From Candidatus Bathyarchaeia archaeon (GTDB lineage Archaea; Thermoproteota; Bathyarchaeia; 40CM-2-53-6), in the NCBI GenBank assembly GCA_049517415.1, contig JBEKSC010000006.1:17228-81227 (forward strand): DNA of 64,000 nucleotides. Reading direction: 5' to 3'. A program made the position numbers and the translations under genes. This document shows, one piece after another, positions 13,966 to 40,098 of the stretch. The notes under the pieces are model-generated. The model was not told where the DNA came from, ran no database searches, and was given only the letters and a program-made list of their open reading frames with translations. The number at the start of each line of letters is the position of its first letter. The first letter of the stretch is position 1.

Positions 13966-14699
13966 TTCGAAGTCTCTGACCTACTAATTCTCCTTCGAGT
14001 TATGACAATGATGAAGAACCCTTCTGCGATCAGTACGATGCCGAATATTGCCAGATTTAGTGGAAGCAAATATGTTACTTCAAGTCTGGGGTAGTAGTTT
14101 TCACTCGGAACTTGGTCATGCGTGAAGAATTGGGTAGTATAGAGGCCGGTTGCATATTCTTGGGTGTCTTTCACCACGAGCCCATCGTTATTCACGCCTG
14201 ATTGCCAGTCTCTCATTATGTCGGTTACGTCCCAACTCATATACACCAGAGGCCCGTACCACCCACCTTGGCCTGGCGGAACTGGAGATATGGCGTGGTG
14301 CTCATCCGTGAAGTTGGGTTGGTTAACCCAGTTGACCCCCGTTTCATTCCAAGGCTGTTCGAGGCGGTAAACTCCGTAAATTCTGCTCGTTGAATCTTCA
14401 GTGCCCAATGCTGGGTCGCCTTTGGACCACAACCGTAGGCGAAACTCGGCTGAAACAACCCAAGCCTCTGACGGAATCGAGCTCACATTGAATTCTATCC
14501 AACCTCTCATGTTGTATGGCGGCTTGTTGTAAGAGGTGATCTCAAAATTATCAGAGTGGCCGTTATTGGCCAGTGGAACTGATTGCCAACTGTAACTATC
14601 CTTATCCGGATAGATTGTTGTGACCTTGACTGATGTCATCCAAAACGTACCGGCCGTGGAGACGACAAGAATGAGGATTAGTAGGAGGCTGCGTTTCAT
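13962..14699 (-). CDS. DNRLRE-like domain membrane-anchored protein
   Basis: RGWIEFNVSSIP...SAEFRL, WNETGVNWVNQP, WDVT, PRLEVTY, with N- and C-terminal hydrophobic helices. Confidence 0.75.
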   Translation of the reverse strand: MKRSLLLILILVVSTAGTFWMTSVKVTTIYPDKDSYSWQSVPLANNGHSDNFEITSYNKPPYNMRGWIEFNVSSIPSEAWVVSAEFRLRLWSKGDPALGTEDSTSRIYGVYRLEQPWNETGVNWVNQPNFTDEHHAISPVPPGQGGWYGPLVYMSWDVTDIMRDWQSGVNNDGLVVKDTQEYATGLYTTQFFTHDQVPSENYYPRLEVTYLLPLNLAIFGIVLIAEGFFIIVITRRRISRSETSK

Positions 14700-14769
14700 T
14701 GAAGGAAACCTATTGGGTAGAGGAAGAACAAATGGTCAAAGCCATAAAACCTACGTTAATGTGATAATT

Positions 14770-15112
14770 ATGGGCACAATAAGCGAGACGCAATTGAAAG
14801 CCAGCCGGGAAGCCTCCGGAACCGTCAAAGAGAAGCTTATCGCATTCGAGAAAATTCCTGAAATCAAGAATTGACTTGACGGCAGCGACCTCAAACCGTC
14901 CACGCGCGATTATTATGCAAAGAGACTCTTAGAGTTCATCGAGAGGGCTCCCAAGAATCCTAGGCCAGTTGCCATAGAGATCAACGGAAAAGTAGCTGAG
15001 ACAACTACCAACCATGGACCTCCTCTCTTTTCACATGAGGGCCGCCGTGAAATCCTTTCTCGACTATTACGAGGCAGGAGTTCCCGTGTTTGAAAAGTTG
15101 CCATCGTATTGA
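14770..15112 (+). pseudogene. remnant of a tyrosine recombinase N-terminal (core-binding) domain
   Basis: Reading through TGA 14872-14874 and one frameshift gives IPEIKN*LDGSDLKPSTRDYYAKRLLEFI...FHMRAAVKSFLDYY. No catalytic domain follows. Confidence 0.5.
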
Positions 15113-15219
15113 TGGGAGCAGTGAAATTTGGATACGTGATTCTCACTTGTGTGGATGCCACGAAGGCCTATGTAAGCCCGATTGCGGAGTTCGAAGCGAG
15201 TCGCGGACGGTATGGGTTC

Positions 15220-16091
15220 ATGGAGTTCTGGTTCGTTCTTGCTATACTCTCCGTGTTTCTATGGGGGTTTCGCCAACATTTTTGTCAAGCTGGGCACCCC
15301 GAAGCTTGGAGTAACTCGGATGGCCGGCCTCGTAGCAGTCATTGAGGGCATGATCTACTTTGCAGGCTTCTTCTTTTGGCACTACAACGCAGCTATTGAC
15401 TTGGAGTACGGTGTGCTTGCAGCGGCTTCAGCATTCGTCGGAACAATTGCTTACCTCTGCTTCTTCGAATCAGTGGTGGAGGGTCAAGTCGCAATCGTGG
15501 GAACCATATGAGCCGCCTATCCTAGCCTGACCGTTATCGGCGCACTGGCATTCCTATCGGAGTCTCTGACGGCTACGCAGTTGGTCGGGGTCGCCGCTAT
15601 AATCTGCGGCATCGTAGCCTTAACGTACGAGCGGAGCCCACATTCACGGTATTCCATCCCAAGAAGATCCTTGCTCTTCGCGCTGTTGGCGTTCGCGCTT
15701 TGGGGTTTCTGGAGTCTGACCGCTAAAATTGCGGTCAGCAAAATCGGTCCAGGAAATGTCTTCGGCTTCTACGTAATCTCATCAGTGACCGGGCCTTTGG
15801 TTTACATGTGGTTTCGAAGAATTAGACCCGGGCCTTTGAATGTTGAGAAACCATCATGGATCTCTTGGTTTTTCGGAGCGGCTGGGCTTGCTTAATGTCT
15901 CTGGCACGCTGGTTTTCTCATTTGCGCTGAGTTTGGGGTTAGCGTCACTTGTGGTCCCCATATCAAGTGCCTACCCGCTTGTCACCGTGACGGTAGCCAT
16001 GCTATTGCTCGGTGAGAAATTGAATCGGCTTCAACTGACTGCTCTCGCCTGTGTGATAACGGGCCTACTCATGATCGCGTTTATTGGATGA
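15220..16091 (+). pseudogene. EamA/DMT family transporter pseudogene
   Basis: Fragments MEFWFVLAILSVFLWG / ANIFVKLG...VGTI*AAYPSLT / ...PISSAYPLVT...LLGEKL are joined by a frameshift near 15265, TGA at 15509-15511 and a frameshift near 15890. Confidence 0.85.
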
Positions 16092-16875: not shown

Positions 16876-17703
16876 CTACTTCGCCTGCGGATATGATCCT
16901 AAGACTTTGAGAAACGTGGTTGACTTCGCCAGTGCCTCAAGAGCTTCGCCACACTTGCCCTCTGAACGATGCCCTTCAAAATCCACGAAGAAGTGATATT
17001 CCCACGGAACGGTTCTGACGGGCCGTGACTCAATTCGCGTGAGGTTAATTTCTCTCGAAGCTAGTTCACCAAGGACTCTTTGAAGTGACCCTGGTGTATG
17101 TGGGGTTCCGAATACAACCGATGTCTTATCTTTGCCTGTCGCTGGCGCGTCTTTCGGACCTATTACAAAGAAACGCGTGAAATTCTCTGGAAGGTCTTCT
17201 ATGTTACGCTGAAGAACCTTTAAGCCATAAATCCCAGCCGTACGTTCGCTCGCGATCGCCCCTGCTTCGCGGAGGTGCCTCTCCTTTATCATTTTAGCAC
17301 TCCCAGCTGTATCGTAGGCTGGTTCAGTCGCAATTTTTGATCGCTCAAGGAATTCTGCGCATTGAGCTAGCGCTTGCGGGTGAGAGTAGACAACTTTCAG
17401 ATCCTCCAGCTTTGTATCAGGCAGCGCAAGCAAGCAATGATTAATCCGTATCTTCACTTCGCCAGATATCTTCAGAGCCGTTTGAAGCAGCAGGTCATAA
17501 GTATCATTAACGCTTCCCTCTAACGAGTTCTCGGCAGGTACGATTCCATACTGAGCACGTCCATCTTCAACTGCCTCGAATACTTGGCGCAGTGTGAGAC
17601 ATGGTAGTTTTGCTGTCTTGGTTCCAAAATGGGTCGCGGCAGCTTCCTCACTGTAAGCGCCATGTTCGCCTTGGAAGGCAATAACGTGAATCGTTTCCTT
17701 CAC
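16876..17703 (-). CDS. pheA: prephenate dehydratase
   Basis: AFQGEHGAYSE, ENSLEGSV, SHPQALAQC, NFTRF, ACT domain NLTRIESRP. Confidence 0.96.
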   Translation of the reverse strand: MKETIHVIAFQGEHGAYSEEAAATHFGTKTAKLPCLTLRQVFEAVEDGRAQYGIVPAENSLEGSVNDTYDLLLQTALKISGEVKIRINHCLLALPDTKLEDLKVVYSHPQALAQCAEFLERSKIATEPAYDTAGSAKMIKERHLREAGAIASERTAGIYGLKVLQRNIEDLPENFTRFFVIGPKDAPATGKDKTSVVFGTPHTPGSLQRVLGELASREINLTRIESRPVRTVPWEYHFFVDFEGHRSEGKCGEALEALAKSTTFLKVLGSYPQAK

Positions 17704-36830: not shown

Positions 36831-38552
36831 TTGTCTGAGAGCCGACCAGTCGTCATGGGTACACGTGGTGCCATTACCACTTCAAACTATATGGCAACAT
36901 CGGCCGGATTTGAAATCCTTCTGGCCGGGGGAAACGCAATCGATGCTTCCATTGCTGCAGGATTGGCGCTGCATGTTGTCGAACCACATATGAATGGAAT
37001 CGGCGGCGAAACCCCAATACTTCTGTACTCTGCTAGAAAGCGTAGAATCTTTGCCATATCAGGGCAAGGGCCTGCCCCAAAGGCAGCGACTCTCGAATTC
37101 TTCGAAGGAAACGGAATCAGGTTAATTCCAGGCGACGGTCTTCTTCCCGCAACGGTCCCCGCGTCCTTTGACGCATGGATTACTTGCCTTAGGTTTTTTG
37201 GAACGATGACTCTCAGGGAAGTGATTGCCCCCGCCATTAGACTGGCCGAGGAAGGTTTTCCGGTGTATGCCGCGCTTCATGAGATTGTGACGCGACATGC
37301 CAAGCGTTTTCTCAGCGAATGGCCTACAACTGCAAGAATCTATCTTCCGCGAGGCAGAATTCCTCGAATTGGCGAGGTTCTGAGGCAAAATGAACTGGCG
37401 AAGACTCTTCGCAGCCTAGCGGAGGCGGAGCGCCGCGCTGGGAAGAACAGGGAGAAGGGGCTCGAAGCAGCGAGGCACTATTTCTACGAAGGGCCTATAG
37501 CGCGAGAGATCGCGCAGTTCGCGGCAAAACGATCATTCAAGGATGCAACCGGAAAATATCACAACGGGTTAATCACCGCGGAAGATCTCGCCGACTACAA
37601 AACGAGAATAGAGAAAACTGTCAACATAGACTACAAAGGTGTAACCGTTCATAAATGCGGACCTTGGAGCCAAGGACCCGTTCTCCTCCAACAGTTACGA
37701 TTGCTTGAAGACTACGATCTAAGACGACTTCGACACAACTCAGCCGACTATATTCATCTAATCACGGAAGCATCAAAGCTTGCTTTCGCGGACCGGGAAG
37801 CTTTCTACGGTGACCCGCTTTACACCGACGTTCCTCTCACAAGACTACTTTCGCGGGACTACTCTAGGAAGAGAAAGGAGCTTATCGACATGAGAAAGGC
37901 GTCACTAACACTCCGGACAGGCAGCGGATCTCACATCCCAGTGTCAGAAGGTACTCGGCTCTATACTGGTGACACGACCCACCTTGATGCCGTCGACTCA
38001 GATGGTAACATGGTTTCTGCAACCCCTAGCGGCGGGTGGATTACGAGTTCTCCCGTAATCGAGGGTCTGGGGTTTCCTCTGGGAACACGAGGCCAAATGT
38101 TCTCATTAGACGCTGCACACCCGAATTGTCTGGCGCCAGGGAAACGCCCGCGAACAACGTTAACTCCAAGCCTCATCAGTTCGAAAAGACGACCTGTTCT
38201 GGCCTTTGGGACGCCTGGCGGAGACCAACAAGACCAGTGGGCACTTCAATTCTTTCTCAATTTCATGGAGTTCGGCATGGATCTCCAGGCAGCGATCGAT
38301 GCTCCATCGTTCCATAATCAGCATTTTCCAAGCTCCTTCTATCCTAGGAAGGCCGAGCTTGGCAGCCTGTACGTGGAAGGGCGAATACCCAGAGGAATCG
38401 TGAACGAATTGAGGAGTAGAGGTCATAACGTGATTGTCCAAGGTGATTGGGTGAACGGCCGTATGACAGCAGCACATTATGATTGGGAGAATAATGTAGT
38501 GAGTGCCGCCGCCTCGTCGCGATATCAGATAGCCTACGCATTAGCACATTAA
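36831..38552 (+). CDS. ggt: gamma-glutamyltransferase family protein
   Basis: GGNAIDA, GIGG, GDTTH (nucleophile Thr), PGKRPRTT, GTPGGDQQ. Confidence 0.93.
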   Translation: MSESRPVVMGTRGAITTSNYMATSAGFEILLAGGNAIDASIAAGLALHVVEPHMNGIGGETPILLYSARKRRIFAISGQGPAPKAATLEFFEGNGIRLIPGDGLLPATVPASFDAWITCLRFFGTMTLREVIAPAIRLAEEGFPVYAALHEIVTRHAKRFLSEWPTTARIYLPRGRIPRIGEVLRQNELAKTLRSLAEAERRAGKNREKGLEAARHYFYEGPIAREIAQFAAKRSFKDATGKYHNGLITAEDLADYKTRIEKTVNIDYKGVTVHKCGPWSQGPVLLQQLRLLEDYDLRRLRHNSADYIHLITEASKLAFADREAFYGDPLYTDVPLTRLLSRDYSRKRKELIDMRKASLTLRTGSGSHIPVSEGTRLYTGDTTHLDAVDSDGNMVSATPSGGWITSSPVIEGLGFPLGTRGQMFSLDAAHPNCLAPGKRPRTTLTPSLISSKRRPVLAFGTPGGDQQDQWALQFFLNFMEFGMDLQAAIDAPSFHNQHFPSSFYPRKAELGSLYVEGRIPRGIVNELRSRGHNVIVQGDWVNGRMTAAHYDWENNVVSAAASSRYQIAYALAH

Positions 38553-38618
38553 TGCGAGTGACTCTCGAAGCGCCATTGAAGATAAGCACACACTGGTAGG
38601 ATACCTATACAATTGTAC

Positions 38619-38648
38619 TGGTGGGCCGGGAGAGATTTGAACTCTCGA
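38619..38648 (-). repeat. orphan tRNA 3' segment (T-arm + acceptor strand + CCA)
   Basis: Minus strand reads TC-GAGAG-TTCAAAT-CTCTC-CCGGCCC-A-CCA. It is 24/30 identical to the tRNA-Val 3' end at 39477-39506. Confidence 0.9.
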
Positions 38649-39506
38649 GCAGTCTTGAGTACTTTCATTCATCTCTGGTTCTTCTTGCTTTCAAGAAACT
38701 CTCTATATTCGGAAGAGTGGGCCATTGATTCCGGAAGGAACGAAAATCGATATCATAACAAGAGTCCAGTCAGGTCAGTCGATTCGTCACGTTGCACAAG
38801 ATCTTGGCATTCCACTTTCAACTGCTTACCATCACGGCCGGAGTTTCTGTAATCATCAATCGCGAATCGAGATGAACATGCTGAGGCAAGGCCAGCTGGG
38901 TTACTTGCTAGGGATGTTCGTAGGAGACGGGAGTCTCATTCGGGATAAGCCTCGAGGGGAGTTCCTTGTCAAGATTGCTTTGAACAGGAGAAGAGATTTG
39001 GACATTGTTCAATTCGTTACGCTAATGTTTGAAAAAGCAGGTAAGAAAGTCAACTTTCTAACTGAGCGAGGCATGATCATAATTAGAGTCTGGTCTAAGA
39101 TTTTCTATGAATTCATCGAAGATTACGTTAAGCTCGAAAGAAACCATCTATCCCATCATCACACGAAAATTCTCTTGCGCACCCAGCGATGGACTCGGGA
39201 GTTTGCTCTTGGTTTCATTGGCGGCCTAATAGACAGCGATGGCCATGTCGTTAGCAACTGGAAAGGCGGTCATTACGGTGCGGTAGTGACTACGAGTAGT
39301 AGTTCTCTCAAACGACAACTCTGCAGTCTATGCGACGCTCTTGGTATCAATGTGACCAGCCATGTACAAGCGCGTGACCCCTTTCAGGGCAAGTCTCTTT
39401 ATTCAGTGTATATCCGGTCGCCTGATTTGCATGCATTATGTGGAACACTACTTTCCGTAAAACATTCGAGGTTTCATGGTGGGCCGGGGCGGATTTGAAC
39501 CACCGA
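38649..39506. mobile_element. putative 858-bp homing-endonuclease element inserted in tRNA-Val
   Basis: Bounded by two tRNA 3' ends in direct orientation and containing only a LAGLIDADG gene. Confidence 0.6.
38725..39498 (+). CDS. HTH + double-motif LAGLIDADG endonuclease
   Basis: N-terminal HTH (SIRHVAQDLGIPLSTAY), motifs YLLGMFVGDG and FIGGLIDSDG. The last 22 nt are antisense to the tRNA 3' end. Confidence 0.9.
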   Translation: MIPEGTKIDIITRVQSGQSIRHVAQDLGIPLSTAYHHGRSFCNHQSRIEMNMLRQGQLGYLLGMFVGDGSLIRDKPRGEFLVKIALNRRRDLDIVQFVTLMFEKAGKKVNFLTERGMIIIRVWSKIFYEFIEDYVKLERNHLSHHHTKILLRTQRWTREFALGFIGGLIDSDGHVVSNWKGGHYGAVVTTSSSSLKRQLCSLCDALGINVTSHVQARDPFQGKSLYSVYIRSPDLHALCGTLLSVKHSRFHGGPGRI

Positions 39507-39571
39507 CCACCTGTTTACAGTTTGTTGTCTCGTGTCAGGCAGGTATCCTAACCAGACTAGACGACCGGCCC
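39477..39571 (-). tRNA. tRNA-Val(GAC) with encoded CCA and a 17-nt intron (39514-39530) at position 39/40
   Basis: GGGCCGG-TC-GTCTAGTCTGGTTAGGAT-A-CCTGC-CTGACAC-G[intron]CAGG-TGGTC-GGTGG-TTCAAAT-CCGCC-CCGGCCC-ACCA gives a full cloverleaf after intron removal. Confidence 0.93.
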
Positions 39572-39744
39572 AAAGTGGCGTTGAATGAAGAGCGCAGAGA
39601 AATAAAGACTACCCAATAGGTTGCACCCTTTCCGAGAGTTCCATGAGCCTGAGGTTGGGTCGAAGCGACTTTAGGGCGCCAACTTCGTTAAGAAATCGGA
39701 AGGTCTTTTTGTGAAGAGGAGAAATGTTGTAGGAGCTGGTAGGT

Positions 39745-40098
39745 TTGCCTAGACTTTACGACCAAATAATGCGTTTTGATAAACAGGTCCGCTTCGCTGC
39801 CATTGTGGATGGCCACGGCCGAATCTTGGAAGGGGGCATGCGTGAGGGCGTTGAGCCAATCGAACCCCTCGAAAAGACACCACACCTAATCGCGATGTTG
39901 GTCTCATTTCAGAAAGCTGAAGACCTGGCAGATTTCTTCGGCAGACCCGAGTATTCAATCCTGGTTCATGAGAAGATAATGGCCCTGCTCTTTCGTTCGG
40001 AGAAGAAATTCGTGCTTGTTACGGCCAGCAGGAAATTCAGCCTAAACAAAATTGCAAGGTTACGGAACTTGATTATGAAAAGGCGCCAAAAGCGCTGA
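39745..40098 (+). CDS. DUF6659-like (roadblock/profilin-like fold) protein
   Basis: VRFAAIVDGHGRILEGGMREG...P pattern typical of this TACK family. Confidence 0.65.
   Translation: MPRLYDQIMRFDKQVRFAAIVDGHGRILEGGMREGVEPIEPLEKTPHLIAMLVSFQKAEDLADFFGRPEYSILVHEKIMALLFRSEKKFVLVTASRKFSLNKIARLRNLIMKRRQKR

Follow-up and report, generated by a model that had tools for sequence, protein, structure and literature searches.

A free-standing LAGLIDADG endonuclease gene between two tRNA-Val 3′ ends in a Bathyarchaeia archaeon, probably a homing element that carries a replacement tRNA end

Fungal mitochondrial mORFs have been described in Allomyces macrogynus atp6 and in Glomus sp. atp6, atp9, cox2 and nad3; there the endonuclease open reading frame (ORF) lies near the 3′ end of the host gene, a foreign C-terminus is used and the native one is stranded about 1 kb downstream (PMC3630166, the portion concerning these genes). 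Here we analysed a stretch of 64,000 nucleotides (the window) from Candidatus Bathyarchaeia archaeon (assembly GCA_049517415.1, contig JBEKSC010000006.1, forward-strand positions 17,228 to 81,227; the genome is called G000 and the contig C6). In the window a gene for a helix-turn-helix (HTH)-LAGLIDADG endonuclease, named LAGL1, lies between the tRNA-Val(GAC) gene and a second copy of its 3′ end, named the orphan. Judging from sequence comparison, we consider it probable that this is a free-standing homing-endonuclease element on the tRNA 3′ end, which would convert tRNA alleles by break repair and carry a replacement 3′ segment. The unit is composed of the replacement variable-loop/T-arm/acceptor/CCA segment, the antisense HTH-LAGLIDADG gene and the far second 3′ copy. 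A preliminary description, made from the letters of the window, had proposed an undescribed system; this went too far, since the design is partly known from the mORFs with foreign C-termini, as portrayed in that portion of PMC3630166. By analogy, mORFs are the closest known kind, and the archaeal chromosomal tRNA version differs from them. As in mORFs, whose enzymes are LAGLIDADG or GIY-YIG, an imported 3′ end appears to be used while a displaced 3′ end of the same host gene remains, the imported and native ends differ in sequence yet keep function, and spread between species is likely. Whereas mORFs lie in mitochondrial protein genes, co-oriented and often in frame, LAGL1 has a chromosomal tRNA gene of an archaeon as its host, lies antisense to it and ends inside it. 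Function is kept by compensated stem pairs instead of synonymous codons, and two reciprocal enzyme families appear to alternate and stack at one site.

The seg and mob genes of phage T4 are free-standing genes between or beside other genes; their enzymes cut genomes without them, and the genes are copied in by repair together with their flanks. The present locus resembles such intronless homing in its free-standing endonuclease and in a carrier that would be protected by sequence differences, but seg and mob are not known to duplicate or replace part of the target, and their enzymes are of the GIY-YIG or HNH type. The homing of phage endonuclease genes that lie outside introns is a subject of PMC2790892. 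I-DmoI and I-Tsp061I are, like LAGL1, two-motif monomers and are among its best fold matches; they are encoded on the sense strand within spliced rRNA introns, whereas LAGL1 is antisense, has no intron around it and carries an extra N-terminal HTH. Archaeal group I introns were all located in rRNA genes (39 of 39; PMC6125680). Tyrosine-recombinase elements at tRNA genes, including those of Thaumarchaeota (PMC6563490), likewise target the tRNA 3′ end, rebuild it and leave a partial direct repeat; they differ from our unit, which has no Phage_integrase match in itself or its contig and whose imported tract varies in length. The words 'LAGLIDADG' and 'homing' are absent from the main text of that Thaumarchaeota survey, the supplements lying outside this statement (PMC6563490). 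Our literature searches, again outside supplements, found nothing on LAGLIDADG genes flanked by duplicated tRNA ends in archaea.

The tRNA-Val(GAC) gene is located at 39477..39571 on the minus strand (95 nt, CCA encoded) and was identified by the Rfam tRNA model (39480..39571, minus strand; 46.4 bits against a cut-off of 29), by hand parsing and by comparison with relatives. Read by hand, it contains the acceptor strand GGGCCGG, a D-arm with a 10-nt loop, the anticodon stem strand CCTGC and the anticodon loop CTGACAC (U33, anticodon GAC, A37), the same loop as in the intron-free tRNA-Val of loci L026 and L030. The loop is followed by G, a 17-nt insert, CAGG and the variable loop TGGTC. The insert is the tRNA intron AGACAACAAACTGTAAA (39514..39530, minus strand), positioned just 3′ of the anticodon loop with borders ambiguous by about 1-2 nt; its removal gives the stem CCTGC/GCAGG, as in the intron-free relatives. 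Because of this intron ARAGORN called the gene tRNA-Ser(tga), which is a miscall, the anticodon read by hand being GAC. A whole-genome scan for the 5′ and 3′ parts of this tRNA revealed no other tRNA-Val(GAC), and a second one suggested by ARAGORN on contig C1 was a different tRNA. Minimum-free-energy folding of the spliced tRNA-Val returned no cloverleaf and was not used.

The working 3′ segment, delimited by the repeat (39477..39509, minus strand), comprises TGGTC, the T-arm GGTGG-TTCAAAT-CCGCC, the acceptor 3′ strand, A73 and CCA. The orphan (38619..38651, minus strand) comprises TGCTC, the T-arm GAGAG-TTCAAAT-CTCTC, the acceptor 3′ strand, A and CCA, and there is no tRNA body upstream of it. 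The two 33-nt copies form a direct repeat with 79% identity (26/33) and a start-to-start spacing of 858, so that repeat comparison confirmed the second T-arm/acceptor/CCA segment reported 858 bp downstream of the tRNA. Six of the seven differences make up the T-stem pairs 50:64, 51:63 and 52:62 (GGTGG/CCGCC versus GAGAG/CTCTC), and both stems are fully paired, one pair being a G-U wobble. The seventh lies in the variable loop (TGGTC versus TGCTC); the copies had been called identical except for three T-stem pairs, which is right for the three compensated pairs but missed this position. From T-stem to CCA the orphan is identical to the intact tRNA-Val of relatives G003, G005, G006 and others. 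It is hardly credible that the second copy is a decaying local duplicate or a chance match, for which nothing speaks beyond the repeat itself: the window contains two instances of the motif GTTCAAATCNNNNCCGGCCCACCA, where 100 shuffles gave an expectation of 0.00; all but one of the seven differences are compensated stem changes; intact tRNA genes elsewhere have the sequence of the orphan; and the layout recurs in many genomes.

LAGL1 (38725..39498, plus strand, antisense to tRNA-Val; assigned by Pfam and homologues) encodes 257 aa with a TTG start and a TGA stop. It was described as the only gene between the copies, and it is indeed the single sizeable ORF, beside frames of 79 aa and 40 aa. 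Its last seven codons and the stop overlap the tRNA 3′ end, in the acceptor strand and T-loop. The protein matched LAGLIDADG_3 (E 3.4e-12) and Hom_end (5e-8), while matches to HTH_23 and CENP-B_N at residues 6-35 were weak and under the Pfam cut-offs; no other LAGLIDADG_3 match was found in the G000 genome. In an alignment of 15 sequences the motif residues G67-D68-G69 and D172-G173 (GDG and SDG) were invariant. Both LAGLIDADG motifs, as in monomeric two-motif enzymes, end in an invariant acidic residue, and the alignment to PI-SceI spans both. An AlphaFold2 model built with 15 homologues (mean predicted local distance difference test score, pLDDT, 84.7; predicted template modelling score, pTM, 0.81) has three N-terminal helices followed by two alpha-beta-beta-alpha-beta-beta-alpha halves, the tandem fold of such enzymes. 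Its best Foldseek match was I-DmoI (2vs7, E 1.9e-10, TM 0.66 on the target), followed by PI-SceI, I-Tsp061I (2dch) and I-SceI, the full range being E 1.9e-10 to 5e-6. The ratio of nonsynonymous to synonymous substitution rates (dN/dS) among intact LAGL1 copies was 0.17-0.29, compared with 0.13-0.19 for two host genes between sister genomes, which indicates at the sequence level that the intact copies are under purifying selection.

A large protein database contained 27 relatives of the LAGL1 protein. Thirteen of the 15 aligned homologues end in HGGPGR(I/T/N), which is what the tRNA acceptor and CCA, ...CCGGCCCACCA, encode on their antisense strand. As these C-termini are kept down to 45% identity, the link of LAGL1 to the tRNA end is as old as the divergence of the family. 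One database form, P0002 (206 aa, 100% identical, 80% coverage), starts at an internal Met and lacks the HTH (window 38872-39498); the homologues favour the 257-aa reading from the TTG at 38725. No intron, of group I or other type, was found around LAGL1, the tRNA being the only match in the window at Rfam gathering thresholds. An intron-encoded endonuclease was considered and rejected, because the upstream tRNA is complete with CCA, the ORF is antisense and no intron family is present in the window. The proposal that the element needs no splicing is supported.

Through comparison with relatives and metagenomes, we found that LAGLIDADG ORFs flanked by two tRNA 3′ ends, which had been suggested as a search target, recur widely. 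The tRNA region was searched in 40 relatives, and T-stems were classified as A (GAGAG/CTCTC), B (GCCGG/CCGGC) and C (GGTGG/CCGCC), so that the window has a class C tRNA and a class A orphan. For LAGL1, 23 metagenome loci, with copies at least 99% alike merged, were taken together with G000 and G007 and gave 15 distinct loci, every one of which adjoins a tRNA-Val 3′ end. The working T-stem was class C in 4 and class B or B-like in 11, and never class A (0/15). The orphan was class A or decayed A in 12 of 14 judgeable loci; none was found in L106 and L107, and L094 was not judgeable, its contig ending 66 nt before the ORF. Among same-genus genomes with a readable T-stem (n=19), eight had class A, eight class B and three class C, the last being G000, G007 and G020 only. 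G009, whose contig ends inside the tRNA, and G008, G012 and G022, for which no tRNA-Val(GAC) locus was retrieved, are not in this count. The GGTGG stem had been described as recoded, which is overstated, since both replacement stems are ordinary alleles of other species.

A second family showed the reverse arrangement. Genome G004 has a class A tRNA-Val followed by an antisense HTH-LAGLIDADG gene, LAGL2 (316 aa; LAGLIDADG_3 E 5.7e-16), and then an orphan with GATGG/CCGTC. LAGL2 and LAGL1 align in their motifs only (BLASTP E 0.015). Relatives of LAGL2 were found at tRNA-Val in three metagenome loci. The order in L099 is tRNA(A)-LAGL2-orphan(B-like)-LAGL1-orphan(A), and that in L105 is tRNA(B)-LAGL1-orphan(A)-frameshifted LAGL2-decayed orphan(B); L104 has the order of L105 with LAGL2 reduced to a 34-codon remnant. 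At all four LAGL2 loci a class A stem adjoins the gene, and a B, B-like or GATGG/CCGTC stem is found in the far copy (4/4). The reversed pairing and the two stacking orders indicate that LAGL1 and LAGL2 carry opposite alleles and invaded the same tRNA in both orders. Thus the T-stem difference is tied to the element, as first supposed, the working and orphan classes following the endonuclease family, and the comparative loci also back the view that the element supplies its own tRNA 3′ segment while the other copy is stranded downstream.

The unit has also moved between lineages. A shared block at 38619..39616, defined by alignments to G007, L095 and L097, consists of the orphan, LAGL1, the complete tRNA and some 45 nt on its upstream side. 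In G007, of the same genus, the tRNA stem is GGTGG/CCGCC, the endonuclease gene is 90% identical and the orphan stem reads GAGAA/CTCTC. The DNA of G007 is 90% identical to that of G000 over 998 nt, from 38619, the last base of the orphan, to 39616, and on both sides follow several kb of unrelated genes. The metagenome contigs L095 (90.5% identical to the block) and L097 (93-94.5%) both match it from exactly 38619 onward, and their flanks showed no match to the window. The block therefore occurs in at least three unrelated genomic contexts at about 90-94% DNA identity. Between G000 and G007 the synonymous divergence (dS) of LAGL1 was 0.20, whereas two of three host genes were saturated (dN 0.27-0.37) and the third gave no estimate; the block is thus far younger than the host split and moved between lineages. 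A 90%-identical gene copy is also present in the public record 'archaeon RBG_16_50_20', the sole named genome record found, which is placed under Bathyarchaeia in a table of PMC7642518. In the wider phylum, LAGL1 was detected (E <= 1e-10) in only G187 of 400 other sampled genomes; there it is broken by frameshift into two pieces at the end of a contig whose available DNA includes no tRNA. Taken together, the compared sequences bring out a 1-kb unit with fixed outer ends, spread among lineages, with one ORF and no recombinase.

The intron also bears on the mode of transfer. The intron of the G000 tRNA-Val is identical in L097 and similar in G007, and unrelated introns are present in other species; L094 has a class C stem, but its intron differs from the one common to these three loci, so the length of the converted tract varies between loci. 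A further case is a chimeric tRNA-Thr in G063, described below. Because the tract ends differ among L094, G000 and G063, the variable conversion tract fits break repair and not the fixed crossover of a recombinase.

This bears directly on the possibility that the two copies are attachment-site halves of a tyrosine-recombinase element, either a decayed larger one or a mini-element mobilised by an integrase elsewhere, with LAGLIDADG as cargo. Integrase elements too rebuild tRNA 3′ ends and leave a partial copy, and G000 itself has such a case, an orphan tRNA 3′ end at C2:122864 beside a Phage_integrase match (C2:121864-122361), an attachment site of the usual integrase type. Repeats of tRNA ends that enclose cargo other than a nuclease (G037, G014 and contig C11 of G000) would also suit this explanation. 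We nevertheless judge it improbable for LAGL1. The Pfam Phage_integrase model matched at six places in the genome, none of them on C6, and the block of about 1 kb has one ORF in G007 and L097 as well; the recombinase search consisted of this model, serine recombinases not being searched separately. The absence of an integrase in the preliminary description therefore stands on this search. The two copies share no exact stretch longer than 12 nt, so there are no identical core repeats, nor is there a fixed crossover. In addition, the 15 LAGL1 and four LAGL2 loci each hold their own T-stem pairing.

On the homing explanation, LAGL1 would cut class A tRNA-Val(GAC), probably close to where the variable loop meets the T-stem (positions ~43-49); the site is placed there because the orphans begin there and carry small changes there. 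The break would be repaired from an occupied allele, with the conserved tRNA body and the orphan 3′ segment serving as arms. The recipient would then gain a whole tRNA with the other paired T-stem (GGTGG/CCGCC or GCCGG/CCGGC), the endonuclease gene and the orphan. An occupied allele would be immune, since the insert separates the two parts of its site and the working tRNA carries a changed version, and the tRNA would stay functional with no need of splicing. LAGL2 would act in reverse, bringing GAGAG/CTCTC and stranding GCCGG- or GATGG-type ends; with opposite allele preferences the families could invade in turn and pile up behind the tRNA. We infer cleavage, the position of the site and the route of repair from the loci compared, in which family-specific T-stem pairing, stacking in both orders, chimeric tRNAs, variable tracts and decay are apparent. 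The preliminary idea of a selfish LAGLIDADG element that replaces a tRNA 3′ end is hence supported in its core, and several of its details are not.

Related elements were found at other tRNA genes. LAGL2 relatives of 305-323 aa lie antisense on the 3′ end of tRNA-Thr(GGU) in G018, G063, G060, G065 and G023, and an orphan is present at four of these five loci. The orphans of G063 and G060 have an insert of about 20 nt in the T-loop; of 25 tRNA-Thr(GGU) genes in the family, four intact ones have such an insert (G052, G062, G064 and G024), and G064 and G024 are genus-mates of G063. The working tRNA-Thr of G063, from the anticodon stem through the canonical intron to the 3′ end, equals that of G046/G047, from another genus. 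With an orphan like that of its genus-mates and a working half like G046/G047, the stranded copy in G063 is native and the 3′ half was imported with the endonuclease gene. A displaced end that matches the host lineage's own allele was seen at the G063 tRNA-Thr; at the G000 tRNA-Val the orphan is class A and the clade class B.

Of 105 genomes of the order that were searched, 16 had LAGL2 relatives, at up to six places per genome. Among 29 such loci, 12 adjoin a tRNA passing the Rfam cut-off, four adjoin the same tRNAs as recognized by sequence, six adjoin a tRNA-like sequence below the cut-off, and seven have none. In G016 the target is tRNA-Pro(UGG), with an orphan. At other loci the arrangement is mirrored: the LAGLIDADG gene shares the strand of an intron-bearing tRNA and is on its upstream side (L118, L121, L123-L125; L109, L111, L112 and L114). 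A repeated tRNA 5′ end was detected in L118, L109, L111, L112 and L114, the copy in L118 being 19 nt and upstream of the gene.

Several observations weigh against the homing explanation, and some concern the history of the window itself. A host tree was constructed from six flanking proteins in 12 of 15 genomes, G007, G017 and G001 being dropped with less than half of the columns filled. It placed G000 next to G014, in a clade with G018 and G004 and beside G013, G015 and G016. The group of G000 in this tree has a tRNA-Val with a type II body and a class B stem. The tRNA-Val of G000, with its type I body, class C stem and the intron common to L097 and G007, conflicts with its clade; from body, intron and stem together, conversion took in the entire tRNA along with the block. 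The orphan carries a class A stem where the clade has class B, so it is not plainly the displaced end of G000's own gene. By this comparison the GAGAG/CTCTC orphan is probably not simply the old end of G000. Either the orphan may travel with the element, or an earlier LAGL2-type invasion made the ancestor of G000 class A, as in its cousin G004. An empty allele, a GAGAG/CTCTC tRNA-Val directly beside ggt, had been predicted; it was not found in any relative.

Further points of this kind come from other genomes. The stem of G020 is class C, and the 402 nt of contig downstream contain no LAGLIDADG gene; a relative without the ORF and with the GGTGG/CCGCC stem had been named in the preliminary description as evidence that would overturn it, and over these 402 nt G020 is such a relative. 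Loss after invasion fits this case. The constant class A orphan could partly reflect one founding insertion instead of class A alleles being cut again and again. In the tRNA-Thr of G018 the same T-stem is present in both copies, which means that a changed stem is not always part of the design. The cargo without a nuclease in G014, G037 and C11 of G000 implies that another process can fill such slots.

The most instructive of these is G014, the sister genome, which has the same orphan at the same place beside ggt. Homology between G000 and G014 runs through ggt, the spacer and the orphan, breaks at 38648 and resumes at 39479. Where the window has 38649-39478, the interval between orphan and tRNA in G014 holds two ATP-binding cassette (ABC) transporter genes (L046, G014:C3, 6772-8608). 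These genes show 85-93% DNA identity with G013, while the flanks show 53-76%; between G013 and its own sister G016 the same genes show 73-92%, which is below G013-G014. G013 and G016 have the ABC genes and no orphan. By these identities, the LAGL1 slot in G014 is filled by a foreign cassette of host genes, and the exact borders suggest that tRNA-end repeats let host genes move between species. Several scenarios for the G014 orphan beyond the ABC genes were considered, and none fits all the junctions.

The same genome could speak for a different explanation, in which the interval between tRNA end and orphan is a hot spot for cassette exchange by interspecies homologous recombination, and the LAGLIDADG protein is a passenger or a domesticated DNA-binding protein that cuts no tRNA. 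The identity pattern of the ABC genes, with borders exactly at orphan and tRNA, agrees with it, as do six protein relatives that lie beside a thiolase gene with no tRNA and no duplication. Such exchange leaves unexplained why class A is never the working stem at LAGL1 loci and always at LAGL2 loci, why the ORF terminus stays embedded in the tRNA at protein identities of 45-90%, why no variation is seen in the catalytic residues and where the first orphan came from, and we regard it as unlikely.

Returning to homing, the loss considered for G020 can be compared with visible decay of the element. The endonuclease copy of G007 has a 5-bp deletion in the HTH region. That of L097 is split at window 39276/39277 by a 1.19-kb insert (L097:1761-2885) with a 347-aa IS605/TnpB-like protein, named by reading its sequence, which shows CxxC...CxxC close to the C-terminus. 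In G073 a remnant of 139 aa is left, 97% identical to the L105 protein. Two of eight class B tRNA-Val genes without an intact endonuclease gene have traces of the LAGL1 C-terminus at the tRNA end, 38 codons in G015 (E 9e-8) and 39 codons in G019 (E 0.005). The traces suggest that class B reached G015 and G019 with an element that has since decayed.

Considering these loci jointly, we might speculate that two unrelated LAGLIDADG lineages cycle at one tRNA, from GAGAG to GCCGG/GGTGG and back. Each invasion would shove the prior element downstream, so that the DNA behind the tRNA would be a layered record of invasions. Endonucleases, not drift, would drive the T-stem polymorphism, the chimeric tRNAs and some gain and loss of introns. 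The orphan would be a portable homology arm that lets the element, and sometimes host genes such as the ABC genes of G014, cross species. Sister families would do likewise at tRNA-Thr, tRNA-Pro and other tRNAs, including the mirror form at 5′ ends. As a joint proposal we hold this tentatively, somewhat short of calling it probable.

Bringing a spare part would be a third route, besides introns and inteins, by which a homing endonuclease can reside in an essential gene without harm. For an RNA gene the silent change would be set by base-pairing and not by the genetic code. Such elements would account for the orphan tRNA halves, the mosaic tRNA genes and the T-stem variation in these archaea, and also for the absurd kilobase 'introns' given by tRNA finders. 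Interruptions of tRNA genes may help or hinder mobile elements, and these loci would provide a natural test of this. They would also offer a natural set of LAGLIDADG enzymes with paired, closely related target alleles as material for the study of specificity shifts.

The remaining features of the window are as follows. The locus lies between ggt (gamma-glutamyltranspeptidase; 36831..38552) and a DUF6659 gene (39745..40098). A 66-nt spacer (38553..38618) separates the ggt stop codon from the orphan and is common to the sister genome G014. The spacer from the orphan to the ORF start (38652..38724, plus strand) contains TATATT, a TATA-like sequence, at 38704-38709. As part of the shared block it is conserved in G007 and L097, and it is presumed from its sequence to be the promoter of the endonuclease gene.

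The window's sequence is present in public sequencing runs from peat, wetland and soil; no RNA run carrying it was found among 24 runs. Assembled contigs were uninterrupted over 38443..39561 in runs X15, X16 and X5, and in X12 this region was covered by two overlapping contigs. In the assembled contigs of these four runs, which drop rare variants and so do not address polymorphism, no contig joined the ggt side straight to the tRNA body of G000's organism. 'Joints' 38648>39532 in the runs were rejected as an empty allele; they come from other organisms of those samples, whose class A tRNA-Val genes are intact, and indicate co-occurrence only.

Two of the loci with other cargo were read in detail. 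In G037 (L026, G037:C97), which belongs to a different family of the order, genes of the UPF0175 and DUF3368/PIN-like types, a toxin-antitoxin-like pair, lie between tRNA-Val(GAC) and an orphan; the second 3′ end is 1074 nt downstream, and there is no LAGLIDADG gene. On contig C11 of G000 (14678-15969), a tRNA is followed by a gene for a 325-aa trypsin-like protease (DegP/HtrA-like, by eye), and the last 30 nt of the tRNA appear again 1185 nt downstream; ARAGORN called this locus one tRNA with a 1194-nt intron. Most tRNA genes of G000 contain introns, often more than one and at non-canonical positions, and ARAGORN with introns allowed found only 30 tRNAs in the genome, several of them misnamed.

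At six of the seven tRNA-free loci of the LAGL2 superfamily, an HTH-LAGLIDADG gene of about 316 aa lies directly downstream of a thiolase gene (G041, G042, G043, G044, G055 and G060). The thiolase-linked loci are L040, L041, L044, L126, L133-L136 and L145; no duplicated thiolase 3′ end was found at the eight loci checked, which are five distinct places since three times two loci coincide, L145 being left out. In L117 (G001:C26, 2394-2530), a 40%-identical LAGL2 relative is followed by a whole tRNA on the same strand, and 7 nt past this tRNA there is a stray tRNA-Val-like 3′ end with the stem GAGGG/CCCTC.

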